A stretch of 62,720 bases of DNA, filler included, from Hausera hauseri (GCA_046269625.1; 10 parts of 10 records of this genome joined end to end with filler, not necessarily neighbours in it), one strand, 5' to 3'; shown: positions 26,580-57,942, numbered from the whole stretch's first letter. The notes: a model not told the origin generated them from the letters alone. Made by a program: numbers and translations.

Positions 26580-26679
26580 CTGAAAAATAAATAAAGATTA
26601 ATCCTAAGACAGATCATCGTTTTGAAACAAAACATTTTCTCTGTCTGATGATAGGATAACCATATCTGTAGTTGTCAGG

Positions 26680-27936: not shown

Positions 27937-27948
27937 TATTGGCGATGT

Positions 27949-29962: not shown

Positions 29963-30410
29963 AACAATACATAACTTTATTGATATTCATTATGTAAGAA
30001 CTAAAAATGAGGTACTTAAAGACAAAGAGAAGTTTGTCGTAACTCACATATCGAATTTTCGAGAAGTCAAACAACCTTTGGATGTTATTGTTATTTTTGA
30101 TGGAATTTGTAAAAAATTACCTCATAAAAAGATGGAGCTTTGGCTAGTAGGAGAGGGACCTCTACTTTTGGATGTTCAAGAGGAAGTTCGTTTAAGGGGA
30201 ATAGAAGATAGAGTAAAATTTTTTGGTACACGCTTGGATGTGTTTTGTTTTTTAAAGCAAAGTGATCTCTTTTTGCTTACGAGTAAAGGAGAGTCTTTTG
30301 GTTTGGTCCTTTTGGAGGCAATGAGTTCTGGGGTTCCTTGCCTTTCTTCAAACTTGGGTGGTGTCCCTGAAGTTATAGAAGATGGCATCAACGGGTATTT
30401 ATATGAAGAC
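29963..30410 (+). CDS. Bacterial GT4 glycosyltransferase, BshA-like, C-terminal half (partial)
   Basis: HNFID, THISNFREVK, LVGEGP and SDLFLLTSKGESFGLVLLEAMSSGVPCLSSNLGGVPEVIEDGINGYL. Confidence 0.88.
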
Positions 30411-30863
30411 AAAAATTTTGAAGAGGCTGTTGCGAAAGCGAAAAACATCGAAAATGCATTCAGGGACCAAAGCTACCAAGCAAACAATTACTCAGCTGAA
30501 ATTAACACAATCATGCATTCGCAAATTGAGGGAAATAAAAAATTAATGGAACTCACTAAAAAATTAAATGAAATGGAAGAGACTAAAACTTTAAATAATT
30601 TAGAAGTGAGACAAAATAGTGAAAATCAAAGAGAAAAATTATGTTGTTTAATTTGTGGTAAAAACCATCTAACATTAAATTGTTGGCACTACCCAAATGT
30701 AAGAAACCATCAGCAAAATAATTTCAATCAAAGATACAGCCAAAACTATAATAGAAATAATACAGGAAGGAATAATAGAAACTTCAGACAAGGCAGATAC
30801 CACAGGAAACCAAGAGGAGGTAACTTCAGGCAGCACCCTTACTCAAATCAAAATTTAAACTAG
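30411..30863 (+). CDS. gag: Gypsy gag C-terminus (zinc knuckle, N/R-rich tail)
   Basis: FEEAVAKAKNIE capsid-end helix and CLICGKNHLTLNC knuckle, directly upstream of pol. Confidence 0.8.
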   Translation, partial: KNFEEAVAKAKNIENAFRDQSYQANNYSAEINTIMHSQIEGNKKLMELTKKLNEMEETKTLNNLEVRQNSENQREKLCCLICGKNHLTLNCWHYPNVRNHQQNNFNQRYSQNYNRNNTGRNNRNFRQGRYHRKPRGGNFRQHPYSNQNLN

Positions 30864-30914
30864 GTGGGGGTCCTTGTAACTTTTATAGGTACAATTCCCA
30901 CCAGACAAGGACCC
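30854..30914 (+). promoter_or_regulatory. -1 programmed ribosomal frameshift signal (gag-pol)
   Basis: Slippery T_TTA_AAC in the gag frame immediately before TAG, a 7-nt spacer, then a perfect 10-bp stem GGGTCCTTGT (30868-77) / ACAAGGACCC (30905-14). The -1 frame is open into pol. Confidence 0.85.
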
Positions 30915-33900: not shown

Positions 33901-34825
33901 TGAAAATTGTACAAAATGTTTGGAGTATAAATCTAAATCAAAGAACACTTTACCTCAGCAAATTTCAAAAAAGCATTTAGCACCAGGAGAGCAAATTGCA
34001 ATTGATGCAGTAGGAAAATTACCTCGATCATATGATGGGAAATTCTTTATACTCACAATAGTCGATCACTACTCCAGGCACCTAGAAGCTTTTCCAGTTC
34101 CAAATATAACCTCAACCACAGTCATAAAATGTTTAAATGAGTACATAGCAAGATTTGGCATTCCCAAAATTTTAATATCTGATAACGGTTCAAATTTTAC
34201 ATCTGATGATTTTGAAAACTTCTTAAAAAATTTAAATATTCAGCATAATAGAACAGCTGTCTATCACCCAGTTTCGAACGGCTTATTGGAGCGGATTCAT
34301 AGGACGATGAAAGCCAGCATATCAGCAATCTCAGACAAAATTTTTGAGTGGCCCAGTGCTCTTTTAACCTTTAAACTACACTATAACAATTCCAAACACA
34401 TTGTCACAGGATATTCACCAGCAGAGATATTTTTTGGTAGGTCATTAAATTTACCACTACAGGCAAAAGACCAGTTAAAACATGTAGAACACTTTGATGA
34501 ATACAAAAAACAATTGGCAGAAATTTCAAAAGAACAAAGAGAATCAATTGCAAATAATGAGGAGGAATATTTTGAAGCACAATCACATCAATTAAGAGGT
34601 AGAAAAATTAAAGCATTAGAAGTTGGAGATCAGGTTTTTATTAGAAAGTTTACCAACACAGGCACTTTTCAAAAAAAATTCGAAGGTCCTTGGGAAGTAG
34701 CAAGATGTTTTCGAAATGATAACTATCTATTGCAAAAAACAGAGGATAATGAATTAAGAACAAAAAAATTACATGTGAGTGACATATTTATCCAAAAACC
34801 ATTGAGACCAAACATTATAGAATAA
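30854..34825 (+). CDS. pol: Intact Ty3/gypsy Pol (PR-RT-RH-IN)
   Basis: LLDTGA, RMVIDYRLLN, LDLKSAFFQ, YFVDD, VCDAS, HHCC finger, AIDAVG/SDNG/LLER and EGPW. No stops from the slippery site to 34825. Confidence 0.97.
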   Translation, partial: FKLGGGPCNFYRYNSHQTRTHYYHKSRNSQNYDYYKENYNYRKNQQNSYHNRNKNWYRNKNRNWNNYQNKNWKNYSNHQNKIQKHKKISQNSDFKNLKRNQNKIEDKTIQNSKANEEMLVVMSCNENKNHLPIIRFKFGDIIVDALLDTGANLSLVQPSVIEQIKSTTKVDYISRAVRIHTLNSSTIPYLSPVNTKFKIKNKWFENQFFVTQTDWQSKYRIILGYDFLQRNKIIIDTPNKCLIMDNNKFEFEEAAPEKISNNMTKNLKSTEQVKSTENVKSLENLKSKDKKKKKKSTVIAKCVNHIVLEPNSSKVIQLKIPEENKNFTQIMFTPIVNKPGLIINESVHILNENEKFYTIIENESQEIINIRKETNLGKIEVFENSSKIAPSKQEVLQINNLNLEEVIKLRKEEVQESDFKLDHLPENEKKEILDLLMKNYRVFSKSYLTLGSTDAVVPEIKLLHNFPIQTKSYQIPKIAKEFAKKEIAQLLEAGIIEPSTSTYNFPVIFVKKKPLPGADPKNLKFRMVIDYRLLNSITESFKICLPKISEILHNISGKKLYCVLDLKSAFFQIRLQDCDKHKFAFCCEQGNYHPTRLFFGAKNSTSFFHTLIAKCINDIKGPNIQYFVDDIIIAANSTEEMKIWLQKVFDRLANFNLTLDPQKLQICQKNITYLGFQINENGFSPSEDNIHKVLKFPVPKNIKQVQMFIGMLNYFRHLIHDYAKILNPIVNLTRKNVPFVWSDACQNSFEKLQDIILTQPTVKNIDENKPLYLVCDASHISISGILMQKENEQFYPVQFFSKQLTPAESKYPSIRREFYAIFASCKHFYEQLYGKKFTILTDAKPLTHHMHLEKQPDIVARWLLYLQQFDFVMEHIPGFSNPSDFLSRMEPVPLNVNNLNLFSTAGNLSQENIKNQQENDQKICEIINKIKNNDKKVKRQFNIDTETKLLMKKRKPSKKNKAKGKSIEFRIVMPQNLIKECIETAHIPHFGTEKTYNYIKTKYFWKGMFLDIKNFCENCTKCLEYKSKSKNTLPQQISKKHLAPGEQIAIDAVGKLPRSYDGKFFILTIVDHYSRHLEAFPVPNITSTTVIKCLNEYIARFGIPKILISDNGSNFTSDDFENFLKNLNIQHNRTAVYHPVSNGLLERIHRTMKASISAISDKIFEWPSALLTFKLHYNNSKHIVTGYSPAEIFFGRSLNLPLQAKDQLKHVEHFDEYKKQLAEISKEQRESIANNEEEYFEAQSHQLRGRKIKALEVGDQVFIRKFTNTGTFQKKFEGPWEVARCFRNDNYLLQKTEDNELRTKKLHVSDIFIQKPLRPNIIE

Positions 34826-35409: not shown

Positions 35410-35759
35410 AATTAGGTCCAGTTCGATGTGATCAGTGTCAAGAGTATACGCCGTGGAAGTCAGTGATTATAAATGAAAACGAACAAGTGTTATGCCCCAT
35501 TTGCACGTTGACAGAAGAAGATTTGAAAGAAATCGAAGCATCAGTGAAGCAACAGTAGAACGGACGATGTTATGATGAGTTGTAATAAAAGTTTTATAGA
35601 CGTTGTTTAAAGGTGATATTAAGGGAAATATTGTAATCGTTAAGAAAAGCCAAAGGCTGGACGTGGAGGAATATTGAGCAATATATCCAACCCAAATATA
35701 GATAGTAAAATAGCATATTGAAATATTGTATTATTTTGGAATTGAATTTAATATTTTGA

Positions 35760-36173
35760 ATAGAAAACTGCCCCATATGCTTGGATGAATTAGCCGAGGA
35801 AAGAGCAATACTGCCTTGCAATCATAAATATTGTTGTTCCTGCATAAATACGTGGCTGTCAGAACAAAACAACTGCCCATGTTGTCGAAGGTTGTGCGTC
35901 TTTTGTTGGGTGTGCTTTAGAATAACAATGGAGGAAGTGGTTATATTATCATGTCAACATGCCTTTTGTCAGAAGTGTATCATGGAGCATCTGGGATTCT
36001 ACAGGCTATGTCCATCTTGCTTTGAAGAAGTGGAGTTTTATACTACAGGGGAAACAGTGGTTTACTTGAACATTGATAACAGAATCTCAACAACTCTAGT
36101 AGTAGATGAGGATGATGACGAATGGCCAGAAGCATGGAGGAATCCCCAATCGTTTGCGATCGATGACATTTGA
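35760..36173 (+). CDS. Tandem double C3HC4 RING-finger protein
   Basis: CPICL...PCNHKYCCSC...W...CPCC followed by CWVC...SCQHAFCQKC...CPSC. No in-frame ATG before the first RING. Confidence 0.85.
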   Translation: MENCPICLDELAEERAILPCNHKYCCSCINTWLSEQNNCPCCRRLCVFCWVCFRITMEEVVILSCQHAFCQKCIMEHLGFYRLCPSCFEEVEFYTTGETVVYLNIDNRISTTLVVDEDDDEWPEAWRNPQSFAIDDI

Positions 36174-36240
36174 ATATTGTTTTAGAATTAATTATTATTA
36201 AAACTTGTTGAGTGTATTGTTATAATATTAATATAATTAA

Positions 36241-36534
36241 GGTTATCAGTACAGAGAAAACACTATATACAACGGGCTACAATTCACCAAAGGGATATCA
36301 GAAACATATACTACTTATAACCCAAAAGGAGTTTTTTCACCAATAGGACCAGCGTGTGCTATATGCTTGAATCAATATTCAACGGATCCAGCAGAACTGA
36401 TTATTTGCAAACATATATTTTGTCGTACTTGTATAAGAGAATGGTATCACACATCTGATACTTGTCCATTATGCCGTATTAACAACAAATTATTTCGTGT
36501 CGGTCATAAATATTATACCATAAAGAATTTATGA
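36241..36534 (+). CDS. Small C3HC4 RING-finger protein (not in the ORF track; no ATG)
   Basis: CAICLNQY...ICKHIFCRTCIREW...CPLCR, with AATAAA overlapping the stop. Confidence 0.85.
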   Translation, partial: GYQYRENTIYNGLQFTKGISETYTTYNPKGVFSPIGPACAICLNQYSTDPAELIICKHIFCRTCIREWYHTSDTCPLCRINNKLFRVGHKYYTIKNL

Positions 36535-36611
36535 ATAAATATATCTGATTCTATTTTTGATAATTACTCGAATTTGATGGTGATTAATTCAGCTAACGTC
36601 AAAAAAAACGG

Positions 36612-37775
36612 ATGATTAAGAGAATGAGATTTGAAATAAATGGCCAAGATGAAGAGATAGAAGAAACGCAAGTTAATTTGGTCAAATATCTAAAACATTA
36701 TCGCAATAGACAGCTTGGTCCAGCTTTATTTATTAAGAGATTAGTGAGATATGATAATACGAAGTCGGTGGATGATACGATGAAAATTACTCAAAATAGA
36801 AAAATATCATTCTTAGAAAATCCCAATTTACCAGTCCCAGGAGAGTTGGCTTGTTCTTATGCTGAAGCCGGATTATTTAGAACTCCAGCGGGTCAAATCA
36901 AATGCATATATTGCCAAGGAGAATTTCAGTATGAAAAAACGAAGAACCAGCCAAACAAAACCCATAAGAAACTATATCCTACATGCCCTTACTTATTAAA
37001 TGTTGATGTTAGTAACATACCATTAGTAGATGTTTTTACTAAGAAAGCTGATACAGACCTGAGTATTACGCATAATGTTACAGTGATAGCACGGATACAT
37101 TACGAAACAGATAACGCGATATGAACTTAATTTTAAACACCCGCCAAGCAAGAAAGCTAACCTTTAAGGAAAATAAAGATAACAAACATTTGGCGAATCA
37201 AGGATTAGTATTAATACTTAAAGAAGGAGCGCAATATGTGAAATGTACGGTATGATTTAGAGAAACATGTTTATTAGAGAACATTGACCAGAGATGCCCG
37301 AGTATACTGCATAATTCTAAGTGTATGTATTCGATATATAGAACCACAGAGTCACAGAGTAAAAAGCAATGCAGAATTCAGTCTGACATGGAGGAATTTT
37401 GTGAAATGTATCAGGAGAGCACAATAACAGTATCAATAATATCCCGCCATCCAGAGAAGCGAGAGAATATATTGCAGTATATTAAATGTCGAGTGGAACG
37501 ACAACCGGAGTGGTCATTAAACGCATTCGAACTACTTCAAAATTTGGATTTCGTACTTCCATACGAGGCGAATGAAATAGAGAAGGATGATCTTAATGAA
37601 CTTTATTTGCGAGAGTTTGGATGTGTAATCTGCTATGTGAATTCGGCGCAAGTTATTCTTTTACCCTGTGGTCATATGAAAGTATGCGAAAATGTGTGAC
37701 CCAGACAAAGAACTGTCCAGTGTGTAGGAGTCGAATTGAAAGAAAGATAACCTGTTTTCAGTTCCCAGAGATATG
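36612..37775 (+). pseudogene. Inhibitor of apoptosis (BIR-BIR-RING), frameshifted
   Basis: BIR1 RKISF...AEAGLF...KCIYC...H...PTCPY, a degenerate BIR2 RKLTF...LANQGL...VKC, and an IAP-type RING CVICY...LLPCGHMKVC...CPVCRSRI. Confidence 0.85.
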
Positions 37776-37835
37776 AAATGATAACGTTATAATTGATTGA
37801 ACATCTATTGTGTACGAATAAATATATTTTAATGC

Positions 37836-38384
37836 ATGATTACTCATATTGTTAGATTAAATAAATCATTTATAGGAATAACAAACATCAAAGATGTGAC
37901 TCTGACGAATCTTAATGAATGGATAGATCAATTACTAATGATAAAAATACAACCTCCCAAGATAGCTTATGAATGGTACAAACTGTATAACAACAAACTA
38001 ATTGAGAAGATAGCAGAATTGGGATATAATAAGTATTTGGCAATGATTGCTGTCAAAACTAACAAGGATATTCAATATGAAACATCACCAACTATAATGG
38101 TCAACATATACCAATTACAACTAATGGACAACGAGTATTACCAAAAAATTCAACACTTGCAATCGCCACTAAAGGAAAAAGAACAAGAGGTTGAAGAAAG
38201 ATGTACGGAAATCAGCCGCACCGTTTGGATTTGTTTGATTTGTAAAAAGAATCAATCAAATATACTTTATTTGCCCTATGGACATATTATTCATTGCAAA
38301 ACATGCGTTACCGGACATTCCACCTTGTCTCAGTATACTATATGTGAATTGTTTATAGAAGAAACTTGTACTGTTTATGTATAA
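37836..38384 (+). CDS. IAP-like C-terminal module (UBA-like plus degenerate RING)
   Basis: IAELGYNKYLAMIAV (UBA-like) and CLICK...ILYLPYGHIIHCKTC...TIC ending in VYV*, like IAP C-termini. Confidence 0.7.
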   Translation: MITHIVRLNKSFIGITNIKDVTLTNLNEWIDQLLMIKIQPPKIAYEWYKLYNNKLIEKIAELGYNKYLAMIAVKTNKDIQYETSPTIMVNIYQLQLMDNEYYQKIQHLQSPLKEKEQEVEERCTEISRTVWICLICKKNQSNILYLPYGHIIHCKTCVTGHSTLSQYTICELFIEETCTVYV

Positions 38385-41300
38385 TAAGAGAGTTTTTTTT
38401 AAAATATAACAATGGCGCAAAGACATACACACGATACCGATTTCAAAGACGATTAGCGCAAAATACGTCAACAGCACTCAACGAAGATAATGAACAGGAG
38501 GAGAATGTTAGTTCTACTAGTGGTTCGGAAGTAATAAGTACAGCGTCAGCTCCAGAATCTATAATAGACTTAGATTCAGTACAATTATCTCCAACTTTAG
38601 TACAACATAATTGGACAAGAGAAATTAATGGAAGAAGGAGACCATTTCGAGGACGATACCGTAATACCCCAGACCCACGACAGTTAATACAAAGAGTACT
38701 CAATCAAGAATTAGAATGTCGTACACGATATGAAGCACACCAAGTAAATGTAGATGAACTACGAGTGAGGCAAAATAGAACAGAGGGTAATATCCGACAA
38801 TTGCTACAGGAAATACAAAATTTACCTCGACAAAGAGATGATAGCACTATAGAAGACAGTATTTTAAATCCTGATTTGAGGTTAGATAGAATCGAAGAAA
38901 GAGCCGTAGTGTTAGAACAAAAAATAAACGATAATAATATAAATTTAAATGAAATTAAAGAAAAAACTGATCAATTAACACAGGATGTGGGTATTCATAC
39001 CAGACAAATACATGATATACGACTCCAAGCTTACGACCACACGATAGCAATACGTCAAAACAAAGAACAAATAGTAAACAACGATGGACAAGTAACCCAA
39101 GGATTAAATAAGATACAAAACCAATTGACGGTCATTGTAGACGAACAAGAACAGATTCAAGAGAATCATAATTTCGTTAGAAATCATATTGATCATCTAA
39201 CACAGGAAATAACTGAATTAAATGAACACGTTGAGCAGATACAAACGAGAGATATAGTAAATCAAATCAACGAACGACTAAACGTGGTACAATCCCCAGA
39301 ATTTTCAATAGAATTGAGTGAGATATCTTGTGAAACTACTGATAACGATGACAACATGGCTCGACACGGGAATAATCAAGATCGGTTCGCTCAGGATGAA
39401 GAGCGTAACTGCGACCAAAATAACAATGCCGGTTACGGATTATGGAATTTTAGGAGGGAGAAGAAGTATCAAATGCTTCCTCGCCTTCAACCATACGAAG
39501 GACGAGTATCAGATTTAGAGGATTTCTTGGACGAATATGATTCATTGGCAACAGCCATGCATTGGGATGATGCGAAAAAAATATCTATGTTGCCAGTACA
39601 TGTAAACAATGACTTGAGGATAGCAATAACACGAATACCTCCACAAAGAGGGGAAACTTGGGTACAGCACCGAGAAAAAATATTACGGAATCAACAGGTT
39701 GATATACAAGAAAATAGATATCTAAAATTCCAAAATTGTAAACAAAAACCAAATGAAGAGGTATTAACATATATTAATAGATTTAAAACAGCAATGAATA
39801 GGTATTTTGGTGATAACGCACGAGCATTTGGTGCTATGATTATGAAACAATTTGTACTTGGACTCTCACCACCTCTACGAGAAGGAGTCAAATTTCATAC
39901 AGCAGATAATATTAATGACTTAATTGATTATACCCGTCGAATGGCTACTCGAATAGATGAAACACCGGTATGGAATAATCAAACACATATCGCAGCAGTA
40001 GCCACCGCTCCATTATTAGTGAGACCAGACGTACCAAATCGGAGTAATTCACCATGGAGAGATTTACCTAGAAGTCAGAGCCCTAGCGGACAAAGTAATA
40101 ATACATCACAGAGGAGTAACACTCCGGAAAGAAGAAATAATAATCAACCTTCTAGAGACTTCAACAATAATCAAAGGGATACACCATATCAAAATCAAAG
40201 AAACGAAAGATATAATGATAACCGACAACGGAATGAAACAAGATATGAAAGATCACGCGATTACTCAAGAGATAGAAATGATAATAGAAGTCGATTTCCT
40301 AGTAGAGATAGGTACAGTAATGATCGAAATTTCGATCGATACAACAATAGAAATAATCAAGTAAATTCACACTACAGACGCGATGATAGCCGAACCCGCT
40401 ATTCAACTAATAGATCAGATGGACCAAGATTTAATTATTCTAACGATAGAAGGAATGATAGTCGCGATAGATCCAGAAGAGATGACAGTCGGGAACGATA
40501 TAATAACTTTAATAGAAATAATAGTGGAGAAAGAGATAACCGGCGAAGTAACAGCAGAGACAGATATAATTCTGGAAATAATAATAGAGACCGGTATAAT
40601 GATCCAAGATACAGGAATTATGATGGAAGACGAGACTATACTCCACCCCGACGAGAATCAGATAGATACAATAGGAATCCTAGTCCATATCCCCAAAGAG
40701 ATCGAAATCGATCTCCCTCTCCAATACCAACCCATAATAATAACGAAAGATACACTAGACCGACAGACTATATTCTCAGACAAAACGATATTAGTAGAAA
40801 TCCTTCACCATTTCGATATGATAGGAATACGACACCGGAACGGCCCAGATACTCAAATGAGAAAAGACCAGATTCAATGACATCACCAAATAATAATCTC
40901 ACTAAGGAAAAAGGAAGCTCTTCCGATAATGGAAGGAGTAGTAGCGACGAAAGGAGTCTATCACCTCGGCATTCAGTTACGTTTAATGAACAAACCAAAT
41001 CCGCTTTTACAGGATTATTAATAGCGAAACCTATACAAGACGACCAGCAAAGTATACTTAAATCATCATCAAATATTTCTATCTTAGAAAAACCTTTTGT
41101 AACAAGAAATCGCTTAGAACAAGCAGGACAAAAAGTGCCAGATATTCAGCATAATACACTTCCCTATATGCTATGGCCAGAAACCAGAGAAATAAAAGAC
41201 TTACTCTTAACGTTTGTAGCGGTAGAGAAGATTATCGAGAATAATCACGAACCAGAAATCGACCGAATAAGAATAGAGAATAATGAAGGTAATATAATAC

Positions 41301-44300
41301 TGGAGCTAGAAAAAGTACGCTCAGAAAAAGAGAAATACTTTGAAAATCTTAGGCAATTACTCTGTGGAAGAATTGTTGTCGGAATCGATTTACCATGGTT
41401 ATTTAGACAAATACAGCTGAAAGAAACGGATATTTTTGGCACGTTTAACGTGGATCAGAATTTCAATTTACCAAATGATCAATGGAAAAGAGATGGAACA
41501 TTACCACAACGGTTGATTAACTTACGACGAGAATACAAGATAAAACTTAGTCGTCAAGGATCTCCATATTATATCTTCCCAAGTAGACCATTGTTTAAAG
41601 ATAATAAACAACCTATGCAGGAAGTGACATGCAATACCACGCTGATTGCAGAAGTAGCGTTACGACACATGGATATGGAAATAACACGAAGTTGGGATAG
41701 GATATTTGATGATAAGAAAACCAATCGAATAGAGTTTGCAGAAATTGCTAATCAAGGATCAATTTGTATGGAAAGTATTGATAAAGTTTATTTAAAGAAT
41801 ACTGATATTCAAATCAAAAGAGATGACCCACCATGTGCAGTAATCACTGATCAAGGAGAAGTACGGCTACAGATTAATAATAAAGCGGTAATTATCTCCA
41901 AAGAGACTATGATAATTCCCAACTATCCTTATGAAGGAAATTGTCGGATTCAACCATTAGATGACAATCCCTTATATTTAATACAATTACCTAAGAAAAC
42001 ACCCATACTATCCATGGACGAACCTGTAAAACAGGATAAGGAAATAATACTTACAGGTAGATGTATAAACAATGGAGATCAGAAAGGACTTACTCAAATC
42101 ACCGCCAAAAATTTAGAAGGGGAAACAATTTTCAATATTCACATATATTCGAACATACCAGACCCTACGAAGTACACTGAGTATAGTAGACGAGTCAATC
42201 CTCAACGACAAGAAGCAGTGAGTAAGTTTATGAATAAATATTTACCAGGAAAAATAATCATTGAACGACAACTACCAGAACTATTAAATACATTGAAAAT
42301 TAATCCAAAAAATTTAACTGCTGTCTATGATTTAGAACAAACCAACAGAAATTATAGATGTCTAGACTTGTACCATGGTCATAACTCAGAAATAATGGCA
42401 CAAAGATGTTTATATGAGTACTTAAAGACGACACGAGTGGAATACAATCTGCCATGGATAATAGAGAGTCAGAAAACATTACAAATAGCCTTTCCGTTAA
42501 TTCGACAACTTGAGAAAACAAATGAAGCACGAGCCATTCCAGTAATCGAACCAATTGCTCAAAGATGCCCCGATATGGACTCGGACGAATATTCGCAGGA
42601 GCCCGTCAGAACTCGACTAACTGGAGAATGGATAGAACCTCACAATGATAGATTGGTTGCACCTCTAACTCAGCCAAATATTCCACCCCAACGACCTACA
42701 TCATTCGAAGCAATATGGGATTTGGCGCAACCCAGTACATCCAAGAAAGAATCACGATTAGTTGATACAGATGACACATTTGCAATTTTAGATGACGACG
42801 AATTTCTTCCTATGCACGATGCGAACGAATATCCAGAAGATCCGTTTTTATCAGTCGAAAATCCAAAATATACACCAGAAATAAATGTACCTCCAGGTTC
42901 AATAATATATGATGAACCTACAAAGCTAATAATTGAAATACTCAAAGCGAAACTACAAATGACAGATACACCACCGAATGAAGTGTGGAATGCTCTACGA
43001 CAATATGAATCGTTATCACTGACTCATCGAATAGAATGCGCGCCACTACTTATACCGTTGACGAAGGATGATGTATATTGTTTCCTAGCAGCAAGAAAAT
43101 TGCTTAAGACTCTTGGTAGAGATTTAAGAAGAAAACATAGAAGAAAACAGCCATATATAATAAGCATAGAAATTAAAACTAATAAACGGGAGCAGGAAAT
43201 TGAAGTAACGGCTGGAATGTTTACTAAATTCATTGATCTCCGAAGAAAAGTATTGGACGAGTTAGATTTGGAAACCAATATAATAGCAAAAACTGATGTC
43301 TATGGTAGAATAGCCGCTGATAATGATTACATAGTGGATTACGGACTACTTACCGGAAAAATCTACCAGATTATCATGGAATTTGGTACTAAGAAAAAGG
43401 GAGGAAGACCACGAAAGTGCGATTTTAACCCCATAAGTGATGATGAAGAAAATCCTGAGGAAGAAAGACCGGAGAAACAAAAAAGAAAAAAGCCATTATC
43501 AAGAAAACGTAAGGAACAACGAGAAGCATTAGAAGACATACTATATGACAATTTTCAGCAAATTACTATTAGCGATGATGAAAATGAACAAATGAAGGAA
43601 CCAGCTGCAGGAACATCAAATCAACAGGAAATGAATATCCCAAATGTAACATTGACAACCCAAGAACTTATAGAACAATTAATTAAGAAAGTTAACCCGA
43701 ACCAGCTCAAGAAGATACCAGCCATTACAACAATTCCATTACAGTCCATAATAGAAACGGCTAGAAACTTCTCATCACAAATTACAAAGTTACTACAGAA
43801 GTACAAATTAAAAGGAGGTCTGAATAAGACATTAACACGGTTATTAAAGGAATGCGATCAAAACCGACTGCTTATGGCTTTAGGATGTATAGTAGTTAGT
43901 TTTAAAAATCAAACTGAGATTGATGCTAAACTGCACCATACAGTGAGAGACTTAGCCCACCACATGGATAAATTAACGAAGGAATGGGTAACTAAACAAG
44001 GAGGATGGGACGAAATCCTTAAGAAATTTAACCCTTTGTATAATTCAATACAAGTAAACGACAAGTATGTCACATTCAAATTTCATAACCAATACTATAT
44101 GGTCACATTTGATGATAACGCCGTCAAATGTTTTCGAATAATGAAAGAATCCATTAAATGTGATGATCTTCAACCACAACATTCGTATCGAATACAAATA
44201 GTATATTATACACCTCAACTACCCTTCAGGCCAAAGACAGTAGCAATATGCCATATAACCACCTTAGAAGAACGGAACCCTACAAAAATCGAATCACTGA

Positions 44301-45376
44301 AACTTAAGACGAACATAAATCACAAATCATTAATGTTAATAATCATCATACCTTCTATTATCGTCGTGGTCGCCGTAATATCCCTATTGATTTTGCGCAT
44401 CAAAAATCATCATCATATTGAGAGGTATACAGCTCTACATAGAACAAGACCGAAAATTAATTTAAGATTTCCTCGAACGTTATTACTTTTGAGTATGCTG
44501 ATTTGTTGTATGCCAAACTCATTGGCGCAGACCACTTCAAATTCTCAGAAAACAATAACAAATTTACTCAGTCAGGTAACACCAAGTACATTTACAGAAT
44601 TCATGAAATTTTTAAAGAAAAATACCCAAACAGAACCATGGGACATCGAAGAGGTTTCACCAGGAAATCTTTATATACAATATAATCACACAAGACGATG
44701 TTTATCTATGAAATCTTCTTATCCACAAAATAGAATGAAAGATAATAAGACTTCACCTGAAGAATGGGGAACGGTAGTTCTTTACAAACGATCCAAGGAA
44801 ATATGCACTACTACGTCAGTAGATGGGGGTCATTGTTGTACAGTCACTCCAGGAGACACTTATTTAATACAAATACACATAGCGAAGAGAAAAGATTTAC
44901 CTCTTATAGAAAATCGAAAAGCCATAATAGTCATACCAACGAGACAAAAAATCGCTACAATATCCCTAACTTATAATTCAGAGAAGCAAAAGGAGTTAAC
45001 TAATATCGATAAAATATTTTTAGAGAAAAGAATATCGATCAGGCAACCCGACTATGCAAAACAATGTTTGCCAGTAGAATGGGACCGTAAAATACCCAAA
45101 GGGAGAGTAATGCAAATAATCACTCAATATGCCGATACTTCTATTCCTGATGATAAAGTATACTACTCCAGAGAACATAATTTCTCTACATGTATCTCCG
45201 CAAGACCTGATCAAGAATATTCGTTAACATTCACGATGTTCCGTATAATAAAAGGCATATGGAGGAACACAACAAAAAGAGTCGACAGAACAGTACCAAT
45301 AATCCCGTGTACCCCTCTATCGAAGGAAATAAACGCACTGTTGCCAAAATATTCTGTGAAAACGCTACTACCTTAA
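38366..45376 (+). CDS. gag: Gag mega-polyprotein with cargo domains (coiled coil, capsid, R/S/N/D-rich region, two pseudo-exonucleases, Ubl, AT-hook, Bcl-2-like, FN3-like, TM)
   Basis: 2336-aa open frame. Capsid LQPYEG...WDD...CKQKPNEEVLTYINRF...FVLGL at about 39480-39960. BH2-like WVTKQGGWDEILKKF at about 43985. TM at about 44325-44395. The true start codon is uncertain. Confidence 0.85.
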   Translation: MYCLCIIREFFLKYNNGAKTYTRYRFQRRLAQNTSTALNEDNEQEENVSSTSGSEVISTASAPESIIDLDSVQLSPTLVQHNWTREINGRRRPFRGRYRNTPDPRQLIQRVLNQELECRTRYEAHQVNVDELRVRQNRTEGNIRQLLQEIQNLPRQRDDSTIEDSILNPDLRLDRIEERAVVLEQKINDNNINLNEIKEKTDQLTQDVGIHTRQIHDIRLQAYDHTIAIRQNKEQIVNNDGQVTQGLNKIQNQLTVIVDEQEQIQENHNFVRNHIDHLTQEITELNEHVEQIQTRDIVNQINERLNVVQSPEFSIELSEISCETTDNDDNMARHGNNQDRFAQDEERNCDQNNNAGYGLWNFRREKKYQMLPRLQPYEGRVSDLEDFLDEYDSLATAMHWDDAKKISMLPVHVNNDLRIAITRIPPQRGETWVQHREKILRNQQVDIQENRYLKFQNCKQKPNEEVLTYINRFKTAMNRYFGDNARAFGAMIMKQFVLGLSPPLREGVKFHTADNINDLIDYTRRMATRIDETPVWNNQTHIAAVATAPLLVRPDVPNRSNSPWRDLPRSQSPSGQSNNTSQRSNTPERRNNNQPSRDFNNNQRDTPYQNQRNERYNDNRQRNETRYERSRDYSRDRNDNRSRFPSRDRYSNDRNFDRYNNRNNQVNSHYRRDDSRTRYSTNRSDGPRFNYSNDRRNDSRDRSRRDDSRERYNNFNRNNSGERDNRRSNSRDRYNSGNNNRDRYNDPRYRNYDGRRDYTPPRRESDRYNRNPSPYPQRDRNRSPSPIPTHNNNERYTRPTDYILRQNDISRNPSPFRYDRNTTPERPRYSNEKRPDSMTSPNNNLTKEKGSSSDNGRSSSDERSLSPRHSVTFNEQTKSAFTGLLIAKPIQDDQQSILKSSSNISILEKPFVTRNRLEQAGQKVPDIQHNTLPYMLWPETREIKDLLLTFVAVEKIIENNHEPEIDRIRIENNEGNIILELEKVRSEKEKYFENLRQLLCGRIVVGIDLPWLFRQIQLKETDIFGTFNVDQNFNLPNDQWKRDGTLPQRLINLRREYKIKLSRQGSPYYIFPSRPLFKDNKQPMQEVTCNTTLIAEVALRHMDMEITRSWDRIFDDKKTNRIEFAEIANQGSICMESIDKVYLKNTDIQIKRDDPPCAVITDQGEVRLQINNKAVIISKETMIIPNYPYEGNCRIQPLDDNPLYLIQLPKKTPILSMDEPVKQDKEIILTGRCINNGDQKGLTQITAKNLEGETIFNIHIYSNIPDPTKYTEYSRRVNPQRQEAVSKFMNKYLPGKIIIERQLPELLNTLKINPKNLTAVYDLEQTNRNYRCLDLYHGHNSEIMAQRCLYEYLKTTRVEYNLPWIIESQKTLQIAFPLIRQLEKTNEARAIPVIEPIAQRCPDMDSDEYSQEPVRTRLTGEWIEPHNDRLVAPLTQPNIPPQRPTSFEAIWDLAQPSTSKKESRLVDTDDTFAILDDDEFLPMHDANEYPEDPFLSVENPKYTPEINVPPGSIIYDEPTKLIIEILKAKLQMTDTPPNEVWNALRQYESLSLTHRIECAPLLIPLTKDDVYCFLAARKLLKTLGRDLRRKHRRKQPYIISIEIKTNKREQEIEVTAGMFTKFIDLRRKVLDELDLETNIIAKTDVYGRIAADNDYIVDYGLLTGKIYQIIMEFGTKKKGGRPRKCDFNPISDDEENPEEERPEKQKRKKPLSRKRKEQREALEDILYDNFQQITISDDENEQMKEPAAGTSNQQEMNIPNVTLTTQELIEQLIKKVNPNQLKKIPAITTIPLQSIIETARNFSSQITKLLQKYKLKGGLNKTLTRLLKECDQNRLLMALGCIVVSFKNQTEIDAKLHHTVRDLAHHMDKLTKEWVTKQGGWDEILKKFNPLYNSIQVNDKYVTFKFHNQYYMVTFDDNAVKCFRIMKESIKCDDLQPQHSYRIQIVYYTPQLPFRPKTVAICHITTLEERNPTKIESLKLKTNINHKSLMLIIIIPSIIVVVAVISLLILRIKNHHHIERYTALHRTRPKINLRFPRTLLLLSMLICCMPNSLAQTTSNSQKTITNLLSQVTPSTFTEFMKFLKKNTQTEPWDIEEVSPGNLYIQYNHTRRCLSMKSSYPQNRMKDNKTSPEEWGTVVLYKRSKEICTTTSVDGGHCCTVTPGDTYLIQIHIAKRKDLPLIENRKAIIVIPTRQKIATISLTYNSEKQKELTNIDKIFLEKRISIRQPDYAKQCLPVEWDRKIPKGRVMQIITQYADTSIPDDKVYYSREHNFSTCISARPDQEYSLTFTMFRIIKGIWRNTTKRVDRTVPIIPCTPLSKEINALLPKYSVKTLLP

Positions 45377-46977
45377 TAGTGTCAACTCAAACCGATAGAA
45401 CAAATTATGTTATAACTTGTGCAGCAAGACGTTATGATGACGAAATATATATTATTGAGACTACCAATCCGCAACCTATAGTATCGTGCACGAGACACGA
45501 TAATCGAGAAATACTTCTAACATTGCAACTACAATCATCATGTCCAAATACCTTTTGGTTAAGTAGTTTTCAATACGCAGTACAGAATTACATCACGTAT
45601 ATGCCATTAAACCTAATGCAAGTGCCGGAACGGATAACTTCGTTCTTATTTAAACCCCTGGACGCTTACATTCAAGTAAGATCTGACCGTATTTTTATTA
45701 GTCTACCACATCCAGATTTTATAGTAAACATAGAGAATGCTAACGATGCCTGCTATTTACTTACTAGTACTTACGTCGAATGTCCACCACTAATATCCGG
45801 TTATCCTTATCTAGTCCACATTCAACGACCTCACTACAACCCAATACGAAGACACAAGACAATCGCACTTTTGCAGGTTACTACTCTTAAAAAAGGAGTA
45901 AATTCATTGTACAAATTCCCTACACTTGATGAAATAATGAAAGGAGGAAGATTTGTTTCTCGAAAAATCATCGACCCACAAGAAAACAAAAAGTTAGCTC
46001 ATAAATCACCACTTAGCGAGCATATGAAACAATTTCAGATAGATTACAATATGCTTATATTAATCGTAATAATTGTACCAATCAGTGTAGTACTTGTCGT
46101 AACTGTCATAATCCTAGTATGCATATATAGACGCAAATACAACCGAGTGAATGTGTCTCGTCATACAACCACCTTTGTTGATGAACCAATTGAAATCCCA
46201 CTAAATGATCTGGAATATGACTTCGAAATTTACGGTGATCAGAAATGGTTATCTGTTATCCGAAAGGAGGAATATTATCCATATGTAGAAAATAACGAAG
46301 AGCAGGCTCCATCACAAGCCGAACGCTATATGTTAGGATGTATTGACGAACCAACCAACCCAATAGAATATACAACAATAAATGATGCCGGAATAACTCC
46401 ATTAATGTTGGCGGTAGCAGCAGGAAATGAAGATAGAGCTAGAGAAGCTATAACCCAATTAGGCGACGAAGCCACACAAGCATTGAAGTTTCAGGATACA
46501 AATGGCAACACTATAATTCATCTGGCTATTATGAGCGAATGCCACGATTTCTTTATATTAATGCTGATTCAATCTCAAGCACCCTTACATATACCTAATG
46601 TGGACGGAGATATTCCTTTGCTGTTTGCTATACGACATGGTCGACATGACTTGGCAATTCCGATATTCGGTTATGCCTATGACAATAAGGCATTCCAGGC
46701 AATATTCCAAACCCAATTACGCAGTACACCGTTACATCATGCAATAGTTTTTAAACGATTCCTCTTGTTGGAAACCTTTCTAAATAAGAAGTTTGACAAT
46801 GGAACTTATGTATTCGACGTAAACTACGCTCACGGATCATACGAAGAGACTCCTCTTATAACTGCACTCTTGACACGAACCTATGGTGCAGTCTCTATCT
46901 TGATGCGACGACCGGATATTCGACCAGAAATTCATAATTACCGAGGCATGACTATTAACGACATTCTGATACGCGAT
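45310..46977 (+). CDS. Continuation of the polyprotein in the -1 frame: FN3-like repeats, TM helix, ankyrin repeats (runs off the contig)
   Basis: Overlaps the end of the 2336-aa ORF. ECPPLISGYPYLVHI, TM MLILIVIIVPISVVLVVTVIILVCIY, and ANK motifs GITPLMLAV, GNTIIHLAI, GDIPLLFAI, STPLHHAI and ETPLITAL. Confidence 0.85.
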
Positions 46978-47077: not shown

Positions 47078-47187
47078 ATTATTAATAATTTTCCTATTTC
47101 AATATATACAACACCATAATAATTTCTATCCTAATATTTACATCTCCGTATCATCAATATTTACATCCTCTTACATTTCTCCTCTCT
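47078..47187 (-). repeat. Polypurine tract and start of the 3' LTR
   Basis: Minus-strand AGAGAGGAGAAA (47187-47176) followed directly by TGTAAG (47175), about 50 nt after the RING stop codon. Confidence 0.7.
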
Positions 47188-47235
47188 GAGCGACACCTCG
47201 TATGTGCCTATTGTGTCAGGAGAGGTGGCGTCTAA

Positions 47236-49698
47236 TTATTGCCGGCGCAGTAGGTCCAGTCTACTTGGGAGACTACTGTCATCGACTGGACTTGCCTCTA
47301 ACATATGACTGGTGCTAGGTTGATCTTGTATAAGAATGGATCTATTACATTCGCCATTCGAAAAATACTTTAGACCATTTGACTCAGCTCGGCACACTGG
47401 ACACGTAGTCTTACCATTATCAAATGTCCATGTCTCTAGGCATGTACGACAATATTTGTGTCTACATTCTTGATTATCCATTTTAACATATCATTGCCAG
47501 ATATTTTCGCCACATACTGGGCAGGTGCCTTCATTTTTGTTTGTGTTTTCATCCTCATCTAAATCGACTTTGTGTATAATTTGGATTTGCTCGAGTACGA
47601 GTCCGTCTTGGTCGGAGTACAGGTAACCATATAATTCTTTTTGTTGAGTGTTGATCGAACTTTTTATAGGGTCGTAATTCACGGGAACCAATGTCCAATC
47701 CATGGTGGTTTCGTTATCTAAATCGGGAATTTCACCTTTCTGGTAGGTTTGATATTGTTTCTTAAATACCAATTTAATTGGGTTGTTTACGGGAACAGAC
47801 AACTTTCCAGTCCTTTTTGACTTAAATATTGGGACTAAATATTTGCCTATCTCGAAATTCTCCCAAGCGTATGCTCCATCTGGTATTTCTCGTATCCCAG
47901 CACTTTTTACATAAAACATTGCTTCTTTTATTTTCTGATGGCTACAATACTTGGTGGTCACTAGTAGCCTTGGAAAATCTTTATTCGTTGAAAAATGTAT
48001 GTTTTCTTCCGATCTTTTCTTTTTCAAAACATTCACTTTAGTGAAGGTAACATTGCTGTCCGATTTTCTCCTTTGGCTTTGAGTTCTAGTCTTTTTATTT
48101 CTTCAGAGTGTATTTCTTTCGTTTTCGGGGCTTCTGTGTTTTTAGCTTCCTTTTCCGTTGTCATTATTTCGTTCCGGGCTTCTGTCTTTTATGTTTTCAA
48201 TTTCCTTTAGGTTATCTTCCTTATTTTTCTTTTTGAAAAGATACTCATAGGGATAATTTTCTTTTTCCGGTGGAAAATGTCGTCTCTGTTTTGCTCCTTT
48301 TTTCCTCTTCTGGGTTCTTCGGTACCTTGCCCACTTCTTGACCTTGGGGTTTTTGCTTCATAGATTCTAAATCGCGGCTTTGACTGGTGCTAGGTTCATT
48401 TTCAGTTTCGTTTGTTGCTGTGATTTGTTTCGATTCAGCTTTCTGAATGGTAACTCTAATTATCTCCTGGCATTGGTTCGACAGTTCTGATGGGGAATAT
48501 GGTATAAAATGCCTTCTGTGTTTTGAACTTAACACTTCGGGGTTGGTTGAGCTTCGTAAATTTTGTCTAAGATTATCGGGAATCCATTCGTGTTCCAATT
48601 TGAGTCCTGCATATATATATCTCTTAAATATTGGGAGCGTTGGCTCGCCGTTAGAAGTCGGCTTATTCGGACGTGTTCTCCACTCATGGCTTCTAGCATT
48701 AACTTAAATCGGCCCTCTACGGTCGGTGGTAAATAACCGTTTCTTTTCTTAACGGTCTGCTCCATTTGTTCCATTACTATTGGATGAGTCTCGATTTCCC
48801 TAACTCCGCTTACGTGGGTATTGGGTAACTTCAGCTTCTCCATAATCCTTTTCACTTGATAACCAACAATTATACTTCCGTATAGACAATGTAGTAATCC
48901 CTCACGAACTAATTCGATATCTTTTCCATTGACTAATCGTTCCTTATTTATTCCCGTAACTTCTGAATAAGTTTCTTGTATTCTTTTTCTTGGGCTGATA
49001 ATTTCTGTGTAGAGTTCGGTTCCTCCTATCTCTCGTATGGATACTCCAATTGGAACGTCGTTTCCATCATCCCCTTCTCCGTAGTTTACGGATATAATCC
49101 TAGAGTTTCTGACGTCCTGGACTAATCGAAAAGAATGTAGATGGTTATCCCGGTCGTTCTCGGTTGGTTCTTGGTTGAATCATTATGGTGGTAGTCGAAT
49201 AAAGGGTGCGTCTTCGTAACATACCTCTATCATAAGTTTGACTGACAATGCGGCGACTCGAAATTCTATTTCGCAATTGTAGTGGTGGAAATCCCCACTG
49301 TTAATTAGAAAGGTGCTATATCTATGTTGACGTCCTTGTGAAGAATCCCAATTTTGATTCTTTAATCTATAATAGATATCTCCATCCGCTAGGTGGATAA
49401 ATATGTTCTGGTGGTAGACTGGCTCGTATTGAATGAACTGTCTCAGGGCGTATGCTCGTGCATCTTTGTCGTCCCTCATTGCGTATAGCCGCACGGTTCT
49501 ATTCTCTTCCGTACTTCCTTTTAGGTTGTTTGGGATCTCGCTAGTTCGTTTATATTCTACGAAATTCTTTCCGTGTAATTCGTTATTAATTTGCCGAAAT
49601 ATTGATTTGGACGGATGGATTAGCACTGTGCACATTTTTGTAAGAAGTTGTCGATGCTACGCCGCTCTTTTTCGAAATTCATCTGGATACTTACCAAT
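47236..49698 (-). pseudogene. Accessory polyprotein, paralog of 24228-26579 (N-domain, pseudo-exonuclease, unknown domain, RING)
   Basis: Shared blocks EENR..RLYAMR..DARAY, KIKEA.FYV, IG.YL.PIF.SK, L.GYLY.D..GLV and CPVC...C.HKYCR.CLETWT..NGKTTCPVCRAE. Confidence 0.85.
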
Positions 49699-49859
49699 CT
49701 GAACAATAAATAATATGGGTTAATCTTATGACAAAGTTTAGTTTTGAATCAAAACAAATTCTTTGTTTGATGATAGAATAATCCGATCTGTAATTGTCAG
49801 GTTATTTTATCATATACGTATTCTTGGGGTTCCAATACCCTTAATTCCCGTTCTATGAT

Positions 49860-50088
49860 TTCAGAGCGCTTAATCTGGCAATTTATGGTAACTAATCGAA
49901 ATATCGCGATGCATATTATAAGTACAAGCGTTGACAAGCTTACGATCATTACTATGGGTAATGTAGTCAACCCTTCGGGTTTTGTGGTCGTTATTTTTGT
50001 AGTGATTTCCTGTTTCGTGTTTTTGTCTGCATGTGGTGCTGTTGGTATTTCTTCTAGGGTTTGTATTTCAAAGGTTCGGCTCTGCAGG
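49860..50088 (-). pseudogene. C-terminal stalk and TM of the FN3-like membrane protein
   Basis: RTFEIQTLE...LPIVMIVSLSTLVLI matches KTFTVRTLG...LPIIAIFSLSIFVLVI at about 26780-26945. Confidence 0.7.
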
Positions 50089-50089
50089 T

Positions 50090-51544
50090 CTTTGGTCTGT
50101 AAATTCCTTTACTTGCGGTGTCAGCGAACTTATCATCCGTTATGCCTTTTAACAAATTTGTTCCAGTTAATTTACCCGGTGTGGGTATTATTCCTCTATT
50201 AGGCAGACTTACCCAATCTGTCTCACTTCTCTTAAACATGGGTTCGCCTAAACCTGCTTTACATTCTTTCAAAACAGTTGATTATGTCGCGTTTTCTAGC
50301 AAGACTCTAGTGAGTGGCATAACCAATCGAGGTACGTTTTGATATATGACTGGCAATTCTTGAATACAACGTTTTCCCTCCACGTTTAGGGATACATCTC
50401 GTTTTTCGCATTCGTAGGTCAACAGGACTTCGGTAACCCTTCCGAAAATGCCTTTTTTTATTGGAATTACGGGTGATGCTAGTTCTGGATTTGCGTATAT
50501 TAAGGCTAATTTGGTCCACATGATTTTCATATCCAATTTACAGTCGTTTGCGATCATTTTGTGGTATATTCTTCTAATCCGATCTGTCCTTTGTAATAAA
50601 AGTAATCATCTCTATTCTTCAAATTATCTTCTATTCTTACATCTTGTGTTTCGAGAGCAAAAGTAGTTATTGCAGCTCCTGCTACGAAGAATGTTTCGTG
50701 ATTAGTGGCGTACACTACTACATTGCATCGAGAAAGCATTTGTTTCTTAATGAACATTAACCCGTGATCTTCGGAGATTAGTATCGTGGGTGTAGTCTGT
50801 TCATTGACGTTCTTCCTTGATCTGGCATTATTGTCGGTTGTGTATACATATCTTTTTCCCGTGGTTTCGTTAAAGTTTATCTCTTATTTTAATAAAGTTA
50901 CAATCATTTATAGGTGGTTGAATCCAAATAACTATCGAATTCCGGAAAGTACAGGCACCATCTTGGATATGACACTTCTGATTTTCTGTATGTTTTTGTC
51001 ACACTATGGAACATCACATTTTGGTTCCTAATTTCTGTCTCAGAAATCAACTACCACTATTCCTGCTTTTCTTCCTTTTCCTGTATCGTATTCACCTCCT
51101 TTACAATATCCGGTGTGCATGTTTAATTTCCCAATTGCTACTTTATACACGAATTATCTTTCCTGGTTGGGCTTCTAACTCTATCCCACCCCATCTCAAT
51201 GTTTTGGTTTCCTTGGTTTGTTTGCATTGTTGTCGATCCAAATCCACAGGTACTAGCGGTGTTGTTGGTTTTACGATTGACGAATGTCCGTGCATATTTC
51301 CACAGTGGAAAATGCTTCGCGATGGTCGTAACATACACTATATCCCATCTATTGCGATTAGTTCGCGTTGTTGGTACAAGAAATACTTTTTCTCAATGGT
51401 TACCAACTTGTGAGGTCGGGCGTCTTCGCATAGTTCCAGTTCCATTAAGGAATATCTTTTTCCGGCCTTAAACTTATCGCAGTCATATACTGTGATTGCA
51501 CCGAGCTGTCTTACTAACATCATAAGTGTTATTAGTTTAATCAT
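50090..51544 (-). pseudogene. env: Env-like chuvirus-G-type glycoprotein, N-terminal part, truncated
   Basis: Internal signal peptide MIKLITLMMLVRQLGA, then ITVYDCD...YSLMELELC and FHCGNMHGHSS (chuviral G pattern GYDC...SL...C, CGMHSH). The distal part aligns with 2462-4075. Confidence 0.82.
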
Positions 51545-52430
51545 CCAACTTGATTCACTATCTCGCGCTGAGTTAGTTGGTATTAAATTTCTTACCACAT
51601 CTTCAGTTCTTGTGGTCGACCTGTTTCCATCTTCGTCGTCAAATAGCTTGGACCAATTTATTTCTCTAGGTATCTTTCTAGCAGCTTTTCTGATCAATCC
51701 AATGGTTCTATTGAATTCATTCTCTTTTAGGGGATTTGTCTCGATTGCCAAGTACAATATTACTTTCTCTAATTCTTCCTTAGTATTCTCTACCATAATT
51801 TTCTCGATTAAAACTTCATTAGGTAAGTTGCTTTTGTTCATTTTGAACCGAAATGTTCTCATTATCCTTGTTGCGTCGTATGTTGCCTTTTCTTTTAGAT
51901 CTAACATTTCGTTTCTTGGTCCCGAATAGTTCACTATTTTTATAATGTTTCTCTGCAACTCGTTTAATTCTTCGCTACCGGATCTAATCGCGAGCATGGA
52001 TAGTTGCCTTAGTTCTCGTATCAGGACTGCACTTTGGTCAATATCATTTCTTATTTTCCTTGGCCTTCAACTGGTCGTTTCTGTTTCGGTGCAGTTGTTA
52101 TTACTTCACTAATCGGTACTTGATTCTTATCGTATTGTTCCTTACCTTCGTCACTTTGGAGGTAGTCAAAATACATGACAGGGTCTCGGATTCCCATAAT
52201 GCGTCCTACGCATTGTTCATCTCTCACGTTCCTTACAGCCTCATCTTTTGTCTCTTCGTCGGTAATTATAGCCACTATTCGATTCGATTCCTCCGGAATA
52301 ATTCAAACGTATATTAGTAACTCAGGTTCGTCCAGTATCCTACCTCGGAAGTATAACCGATAATTTACTTCATTTTTCCCACTGTTTTGTATTATCCATT
52401 GTTTTACTTCTCTAACCGGATATTATTCAT
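51545..52430 (-). pseudogene. Unknown polyprotein segment upstream of, and partly in frame with, env
   Basis: ORF 51338-51997 runs into the env signal peptide without a stop. No recognisable motif. Confidence 0.55.
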
Positions 52431-52435
52431 GCATA

Positions 52436-52660
52436 CAATCATTTGACACATGGTATAAATGGATTACAGCCAGTTGACGTAATCGATGATTTGAACATAT
52501 GGCTTCATCAAAACCGACGAGGACGACAGGCAATTAAACGCCCAAAATATAAAATCAGTTCTTACGTACGTATTTCGAAAATCAGTACGACGCCATTCAT
52601 TAAGAATTTCAATCAGAACTGGAGCGACGAGGTTTTCCGCATTTCGGCAATCAACACAAA
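52436..52660 (+). pseudogene. Polinton/Maverick integrase C-terminal fragment
   Basis: PKYKISSYVRISK...FIKNFNQNWSDEVFRI matches the Maverick c-integrase pattern KFKVGDxVRISK...FxKGY..NWSxEIFxI. Confidence 0.8.
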
Positions 52661-55700: not shown

Positions 55701-55940
55701 GGACCGAAAATGTGCGGCAAAGGAATTTAATTGGCCCAGATGGAAATCAACCACGGTGATTATTGCAGCATCTATGAAGAAGAAGAAGGACAACCAAAGT
55801 CTGTTGTGTAACAAACGATCATGCGATCGATTGAGCACCAGTTGTATACGGTGGCCAATACAAAAGTCGCTTTATCATGCAATGATGATAAGCGTAAATG
55901 GGTGGGGCGAAATAAGAATTGGGCGTAAGGACAATGGCGT
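52761..55940 (+). pseudogene. Protein-primed family B DNA polymerase (Polinton/Maverick type), decayed
   Basis: AVVNAKNTNDDYCFLYSIL, VVYADIEA, VVFHNFRGY, LYIDINNPYG, KLKNNSLYGK, GDTYSF (similar to DTDS) and NDDKR, with many stops and frameshifts. Confidence 0.92.
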
Positions 55941-57399: not shown

Positions 57400-57470
57400 T
57401 ATTTATCATGTAAAATCATTTTTTATAACAGAAGCAAAACAACTATCTAATATTAATAATATAACAATCA

Positions 57471-57941: not shown

Positions 57942-57942
57942 T

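Follow-up and report, generated by a model that had tools for sequence, protein, structure and literature searches.

Does a helical segment buried in the Gag-led polyprotein of a giant retroelement descend from Bcl-2, and could it keep the cell that expresses it alive? The question arises in a window of 62,720 nucleotides (the whole stretch of DNA that was analysed), which consists of contigs joined with N spacers; the segment lies on one contig of 11.6 kb (Table 1). A preliminary description had placed a Bcl-2-like domain at 43740..44030, inside a retroelement polyprotein and downstream of RING and BIR genes. Our preferred reading, with a probability of roughly 60% that includes the mechanistic steps given below, is that 43655-44035 is a divergent Bcl-2 homologue carried within the Gag polyprotein of a Burro-like giant retroelement that exists in many copies, and that it would bind host BH3 helices and keep the expressing cell alive.

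The domain sits in a long open frame whose capsid region passes the Pfam Retrotrans_gag cut-off, confirming that its host is a retroelement polyprotein. The earliest in-frame Met of this frame is codon 337, indicating that the 5' end is frame-broken, in the copy or in the assembly, and the frame is interrupted again at 45211-45376. Within the contig we found no LTR or Pol, no long direct repeat and, by motif scan, no protease or RT motif; tblastn with Env and Pol gave E=0.29 at best. Env, protease, RT and integrase are absent from 35410-46977 and could lie past its end.

Table 1. Features of the contig that carries the Bcl-2-like domain, in window coordinates
Position	Strand	Feature	Basis or remark
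35410..46977	+	Contig covering the 5' coding part of a large retroelement copy led by Gag	N spacers; ends are assembly gaps
35760..36173	+	Double-RING ORF	Pfam zf-C3HC4_2 E=7e-17, two stretches
36355..36477	+	Short frame with another RING-like finger	tblastn with the double-RING ORF, E=1e-4
36597..37124	+	BIR-domain ORF	Pfam BIR E=5.6e-7
37256..37699	+	IAP-type RING ORF; frame ends mid-finger	Pfam zf-C3HC4_3 E=6.8e-7, profile positions 4-27 of 49 only; translation
37833..38384	+	ORF with degenerate IAP-type RING at its end	Pfam zf-C3HC4_3 E=7.1e-6
38348..45376	+	Open frame, Gag-led polyprotein, 2342 codons	ORF scan, translation
39596..39865	+	Retrotransposon Gag capsid region	Pfam Retrotrans_gag E=1.7e-5, 25.4 bits vs cut-off 24.1
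40148..40927	+	Arg/Asn/Asp/Ser-rich low-complexity region, basic	Composition and motif scan
41198..41581	+	Degenerate DEDD-exonuclease-like domain 1	Row of five-row alignment A6
41999..42421	+	Degenerate DEDD-exonuclease-like domain 2	Row of five-row alignment A6
43142..43393	+	Conserved 84-residue unit	82% identical to P0001; ubiquitin-like by eye only
43655..44035	+	Helical domain, likely divergent Bcl-2 homologue	Sequence, profile and alignment comparisons
43856..43908	+	BH1-like segment and hydrophobic central helix	Arg of NWGR kept, Gly and Trp lost
43982..44029	+	BH2-like segment (W-x4-GGW)	Motif, alignments
44036..44290	+	Beta-rich unit, possibly FN3-like	Only this copy among run contigs aligned
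44330..44404 (about)	+	Transmembrane helix, 119 residues after GGW	Kyte-Doolittle
44477..44515	+	Second hydrophobic segment behind a basic stretch, signal-peptide-like; putative role	Hydropathy
45211..46977	+	Overlapping frame: beta units, TM, ankyrin; exits contig	Pfam Ank_2 E=1.3e-12
45649..45912	+	Second beta unit copy	Sequence comparison
46039..46125	+	TM in overlapping frame	Hydropathy
from 46402	+	Ankyrin repeats	Pfam Ank_2

Other segments of the polyprotein also resemble known folds. The basic low-complexity region is likely, from its composition, to bind nucleic acid. Singly, the two DEDD-exonuclease-like domains have no exonuclease Pfam match, and the joint profile of alignment A6, which includes exonuclease-like frames of other contigs, matches ISG20L2 at E=7.8e-9. 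A stand-alone DEDD-exonuclease-like ORF also occurs on a different contig, at 15080-15790 (+), upstream of a Gag frame at 17064, and stretches of two contigs, 24378-29241 (-) and 47389-49796 (-), have a common 3' accessory block in which a RING accompanies a DEDD-exonuclease-like ORF and an ORF of unknown kind (43% and 42% identical, respectively); at 24378-29241 the block follows an integrase and a cassette of signal, beta unit and TM. The conserved unit at 43142-43393 has no PDB or Pfam match, and its ubiquitin-like label is unconfirmed.

P0001 (1963 aa) is the only relative to emerge from three indexed protein searches and from a full HMMER search across 1.84 billion representatives. It is itself a cluster of one, so alignments are only two rows deep. 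Scans of viral contigs and of metagenome contigs yielded no related loci, and the ESM Atlas gave no usable match. P0001 tracks the window's protein from the basic region through the end of the BH2-like helix (54% identity) and then continues as a Monjiviricetes fusion Env (residues 1345-1952, E=2e-63), for a layout of Gag...domain-hydrophobic segment-Env. Identity is 76% in the domain (96/127) compared with 59% over the aligned region (624/1051), and all 18 residues of the BH1-like helix are the same (18/18).

Features of the Bcl-2 family were taken from excerpts of PMC7022251, PMC9027176 and PMC11209288, which describe up to eight helices arranged round a central hydrophobic helix 5, with NWGR at its start. 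The BH1-like and BH2-like motifs of the preliminary description are in frame where it had put them, within ORF 38348-45376, but the domain begins earlier than was proposed, near 43655. Its reported replacement of NWGR by DQNR is borne out (43856-43867, with NRLLMALGCIVV at 43862-43897), leaving the domain without the BH1 signature and with its Arg alone; the excerpt of PMC9027176 describes the Gly and Arg of NWGR as important for binding. Of six helices measured, only the one after DQNR is hydrophobic (mean KD +1.04). W-x4-GGW, carried in frame by EWVTKQGGWDEILKKF (43982-44029), stands at the correct distance from BH1: the spacing from the BH1 Arg to GGW is 45, against 45, 46 and 47 in three viral Bcl-2s. 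Pfam gives no BH4 match; viral Bcl-2 members may be without BH motifs, according to the excerpt of PMC7022251.

Bcl-2 ancestry of the domain is, in our judgement, quite probable, in that independent and individually weak lines of sequence evidence agree, although both the NWGR signature and the curated cut-offs are missed. TIGR00865 (bcl-2) matches both members, at E=4e-4 for P0001 (the best) and at 0.054 for the window, where it is the top match, and Pfam Bcl-2 matches both at E=0.19 and 0.061; the scores lie below the curated cut-offs (12.7 bits vs 31.4 for PF00452, 13.4 vs 283.35 for TIGR00865). Searched against the PDB, the two-row profile had 13 matches, six of them to the Bcl-2 family (A1/Bfl-1 or Bok, best E=0.0057), which are outranked by a designed thioredoxin (E=0.0023).

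We also aligned the domain with three viral Bcl-2s fetched by motif scans, L014 (BHRF1-like), L063 and L129, all of which pass Pfam. They represent one of 19 loci in one scan and two of 12 in-frame matches among 120 loci in the others, with Pfam scanning confined to these three. The Bcl-2 encoded at 91-672 (+) of L063, which is a viral contig of 129.6 kb, includes BH4 and looks much like cellular Bcl-2 (Pfam E=1e-23). The whole domain scores Z 2.6-6.4 against the three (500 shuffles) and is the best-scoring region among 243 windows of the window's frames. With BH2 removed, local alignment falls to chance level (Z -1.0 to 1.5) and end-anchored alignment gives summed Z of 2.1 and 3.1 (2/60 and 0/60 shuffles), with the helices upstream only weakly in register; hhalign gives 12-20% probability, in the BH2 region only. 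The BH2-like motif alone is weak evidence, since the pattern W-[IV]-x-x-[NH]-G-G-W-[DE] occurs in 19 viral loci, of which one, the only locus of these scanned against Pfam, is shown to be a Bcl-2.

Structure prediction gave AlphaFold2 models of the domain region that are unreliable (pLDDT 39 and 43), with a helix order in the domain model that fits the Bcl-2 family at this confidence. In Foldseek, 43 of the 44 rows listed for the domain model belong to the Bcl-2 family (Bak, A1, Bcl-w, Mcl-1, Bcl-2, Bcl-xL, Bax, and Hydra and Schistosoma members), over 134-161 columns and nearly full length; these rows are redundant and below significance (E 0.5-3.5, TM 0.2-0.3, rmsd about 15 A), and the outcome is best read as a match of sequence and helix pattern rather than of fold. 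Bcl-2 appears in none of the 32 rows listed for a longer model. A structure-only search has no Bcl-2 among its best 50 rows with either model (best Z 6.2 and 5.3), a null that excludes nothing because the models are poor. In BFVD, three of the best 50 rows are named BALF1 or Bcl-2 and one more, named ORF64, is presumably a Bcl-2 homologue; all of them are at E>3.

Might the domain instead be some other helical bundle, for instance a death-fold domain, with GGW a chance likeness? Pfam Death reaches E=0.0049 in both members, ranking above Pfam Bcl-2, the Bcl-2 signal comes mainly from BH2, and the BH2-like motif is present in unrelated viral proteins as well. The Death match, however, covers 44 residues only and is below cut-off, whereas the BH1-BH2 spacing, the central hydrophobic helix and the tail-anchor offset fit Bcl-2, Foldseek ranks Bcl-2 members rather than death folds, and BCL2 holds the same position in Burro (excerpt of PMC6431247). 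We consider a different bundle distinctly improbable.

Conservation across copies bears on the same point. Two public runs, X1 and X2, contain the stretch; X1 may be the window's own sample, and no RNA run is among those listed. Over 43600-44400, 1122 contigs of X1 and 140 of X2 aligned. Summed depth in X1, which is not copy number, is about 1,000-38,000 over 43627-44031, drops to 171 at 44032-44058 and is 41, from a single contig, from 44059 on. This profile says that many related copies have the domain and diverge from this copy directly after BH2. The 117 variant sites include 40 that are listed, picked by support, and 29 of these 40 are synonymous, compared with 35% expected for random transitions (p=1e-6); all seven listed variants over the BH1-like helix (43855-43909) are synonymous. 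The family has many copies, and purifying selection acts on the domain (43655-44035) within it. Loss of GGW among copies had been named beforehand as grounds for giving up the Bcl-2 assignment: the motif is kept in P0001, and the one listed variant that falls in it is synonymous.

What follows the domain differs between P0001 and the window. In P0001 a hydrophobic segment begins 28 residues after GGW, close to the 27 and 24 of the viral Bcl-2s L014 and L129, and it is located at the start of the Env match, suggesting that it is probably the Env signal peptide. In the window, the beta-rich unit and strong TM of the preliminary description are present, but the FN3 label is weak: the unit has no FN3 Pfam match, and the only PDB matches to a profile of the two beta units are LIFR, at E=0.092 and 0.2, leaving the label plausible at most. 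Because the unit is peculiar to this copy, the proposal of a designed substitution, with an FN3-like unit standing in for the tail anchor, is unsupported. The best matches of the ankyrin repeats downstream are generic repeat matches. A similar cassette of signal-like segment, beta units and TM follows the integrase on contig 20221-29862 (faint similarity, E 0.017-0.7), and the window's copy may therefore be a deletion or recombination product in which the domain was joined to such a cassette.

An assembly chimera would offer another account of this arrangement, either at the join of the domain and the beta-unit/TM cassette or at that of the IAP-like genes and Gag. The window's assembly is fragmented and the cassette after 44059 is supported by one contig only. 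Against this, one X1 contig spans the domain-to-cassette join (43841-45035), single X1 contigs likewise bridge 37927-39498 and 36729-37876 with 4-9 differing letters across the three, and the reading frame is open across the join. As X1 may be the same sample, these bridging contigs are independent assembly at best; an artefactual join nevertheless seems very improbable.

The RING and BIR genes had been described as lying upstream of the polyprotein, and Pfam finds their frames there, on the same strand. The BIR zinc ligands (C-x2-C-x16-H-x6-C) are intact at 36903-36986, and the frame of the BIR ORF (36597-37124) stops before any RING. The suggestion that this copy blocks caspases is unsupported, since BIR and RING here occupy different frames, some of them broken. 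The run contigs and the window differ in length at several places, so the frame breaks may be copy-specific or assembly errors; with broken frames, function of this copy cannot be assumed. A decayed homologue of the RING ORF at 37256 lies elsewhere in the window, at 7889-8209 (+; 38% identity, E=2e-12).

The closest published design is that of the planarian Burro elements, for which the excerpt of PMC6431247 gives the order Gag, Ubi/SUMO-like, BCL2, in-frame Mononegavirales-like Env, PR, dUTPase-like and RT, adds BIR, RING and ankyrin motifs, suggests meddling with host apoptosis, and calls the BCL2 motif worthy of experimental confirmation. With Burro/GYPSM1 giant Ty3/gypsy elements, the window's element has in common a giant polyprotein led by a retrotrans_gag match (2342 codons), BIR, RING and ankyrin cargo, and high copy number. 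In the relative P0001, as in Burro, a BCL2-like motif immediately precedes a Mononegavirales-like Env in the same frame; Env is absent from the window's contig. In the place of the Burro Ubi/SUMO-like domain before BCL2 stands the conserved unit 43142-43393, for which PDB and Pfam gave no match, and the order Env-PR-dUTPase-like-RT recurs on another window contig (dUTPase-like by eye).

Several differences set the two apart. Burro has two or three CCHC knuckles, whereas a motif scan found none in ORF 38348-45376 or in P0001, which counts against membership. No MATH domain was detected here, two DEDD-exonuclease-like domains are present, and contig 35410-46977 has a beta-unit/TM/ankyrin cassette after the domain and no Env or Pol. 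Burro elements also have LTRs, a length above 30 kb and PR-RT-RH-IN on one element, features that an 11.6-kb contig ending at assembly gaps may be too short to show. The element appears to resemble Burro in design, a kinship that rests on the domain order in the published description.

Burro-like elements are a feature of this genome, judging from two orders on other contigs of the window. A broken element at 596-4042 (-) follows the Burro order, with a Monjiviricetes-type Env, then a protease, a segment that looks dUTPase-like by eye, and RT, and 51341-52422 (-) holds a ubiquitin-like piece (Pfam E=0.015), a helical region and the start of an Env, ordered as in P0001. The helical region at 51341-52422, which lies before Env on contig 47078-52660, has no similarity to the Bcl-2-like domain; tried as an alignment row, it was rejected (0.1% probability against the domain, Z -0.6 to 1.5 against the viral Bcl-2s).

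Among such cargo, the BIR/RING protein of Burro1 (B-IAP) protects stem cells from caspase-mediated apoptosis (excerpt of PMC13465017, citing Lee et al. 2026, Dev Cell). The likeness to the window is that a retroelement carries BIR and RING, either upstream or inside it; the difference is that function is shown there, whereas here BIR and RING are in separate, partly broken frames. Viral Bcl-2s (L014, L063 and L129, together with ORFV125 and KsBcl-2 in the excerpt of PMC9027176) resemble the domain in the order and spacing of BH1 Arg and BH2 GGW and, in P0001, in having a hydrophobic segment at 24-28 residues beyond GGW. Unlike this polyprotein module, which carries DQNR and lies far below the Pfam cut-off, they are encoded by genes of their own in large DNA viruses and have NWGR or xxGR.

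GAG-ENV-POL errantiviruses with a gB-type Env are known from Nematoda, Bryozoa and Platyhelminthes (excerpt of PMC13524379); they too have Env between Gag and Pol and a Chuviridae-like glycoprotein type, but the main text of that paper names no Bcl-2 or apoptosis cargo (0 occurrences of 'bcl', 0 of 'apopto'). The excerpt of PMC8532177 adds nothing further on the domain. In a limited literature search, a Bcl-2 domain appeared in no other retroelement, and nowhere was an Env signal peptide described as a tail anchor. As BCL2, BIR, RING and ankyrin are published for planarian Burro, the concept is already known; by our comparison the family would be new in sequence and the mechanism is a proposal.

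That mechanism starts from what is directly observed (the Gag-led frame, the upstream RING/BIR genes, the many related copies, selection at the protein level and the layout of P0001). In Env-bearing copies, the Env signal peptide would stay in the membrane after cleavage and double as a Bcl-2 tail anchor, which would leave the domain on the cytosolic face of the ER once Env is cleaved off. The retained Arg of BH1 would form a pair with the Asp in the BH3 of Bak/Bax-type or BH3-only proteins, and the BIR/RING products would meanwhile act on caspases. The window's copy would be a rearranged derivative, with the beta-unit/TM/ankyrin cassette straight after the BH2 helix in place of Env and with IAP-like genes that have partly decayed. 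Anti-apoptotic activity of the domain is thus far a prediction from sequence.

A Bcl-2 fold need not act through a BH3 groove: the domain might be an innate-immune or autophagy adaptor, or a spacer that anchors Gag to the membrane via the Env signal peptide. The excerpt of PMC7022251 ascribes non-apoptotic roles to Bcl-2 folds and establishes non-groove roles for viral ones, with vaccinia A46, A52, B14 and K7 acting on NF-kB. The reduction of NWGR to DQNR would suit such a role, as would the roughly 250-fold weaker Puma binding of an SPGR variant (excerpt of PMC9027176) and the other degenerate captured folds in the same polyprotein. Yet the BH1-like helix is the most conserved part (18/18) and keeps its Arg, and BIR and RING genes lie on the same element; we judge a non-groove role unlikely, and favour groove binding by a divergent Bcl-2 homologue.

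On that preferred reading, apoptosis regulators carried by retroelements make the boundary between transposon and large virus less distinct; in planarians, the IAP part is reported to help host stem cells (Lee et al. 2026, as cited in the excerpt of PMC13465017). The tail-anchor offset in P0001 provides a concrete reason for placing BCL2 just before Env, and the family supplies a compact, selected domain suited to BH3-binding or yeast rescue work. Should the host not be a planarian, the design would be either an old one or one that arose twice. A bolder version, which we hold to be rather doubtful, is that giant enveloped retroelements of a second lineage, unrelated in sequence and residing in a non-planarian animal, carry a working kit against cell death that acts in two steps, namely a Bcl-2 module anchored by the Env signal peptide plus IAP genes, and that some copies swap Env for a receptor-like FN3/TM/ankyrin protein.

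Three further stretches of the window are of separate interest. At 29967-30470 (+), the C-terminal half of a family 1/GT4 glycosyltransferase (Pfam E=5e-30) that looks bacterial by eye shares a reading frame with a zinc-knuckle-like Gag region, and a complete Ty3/gypsy pol (30824-34825) lies downstream; the join reflects either a chimeric contig or a captured gene. Broken frames at 52761-57942 match an organellar/viral type B DNA polymerase (E=5e-5) and are, we assume, Polinton/Maverick-like. Three 50-bp units are arranged in tandem at 61250-61397.
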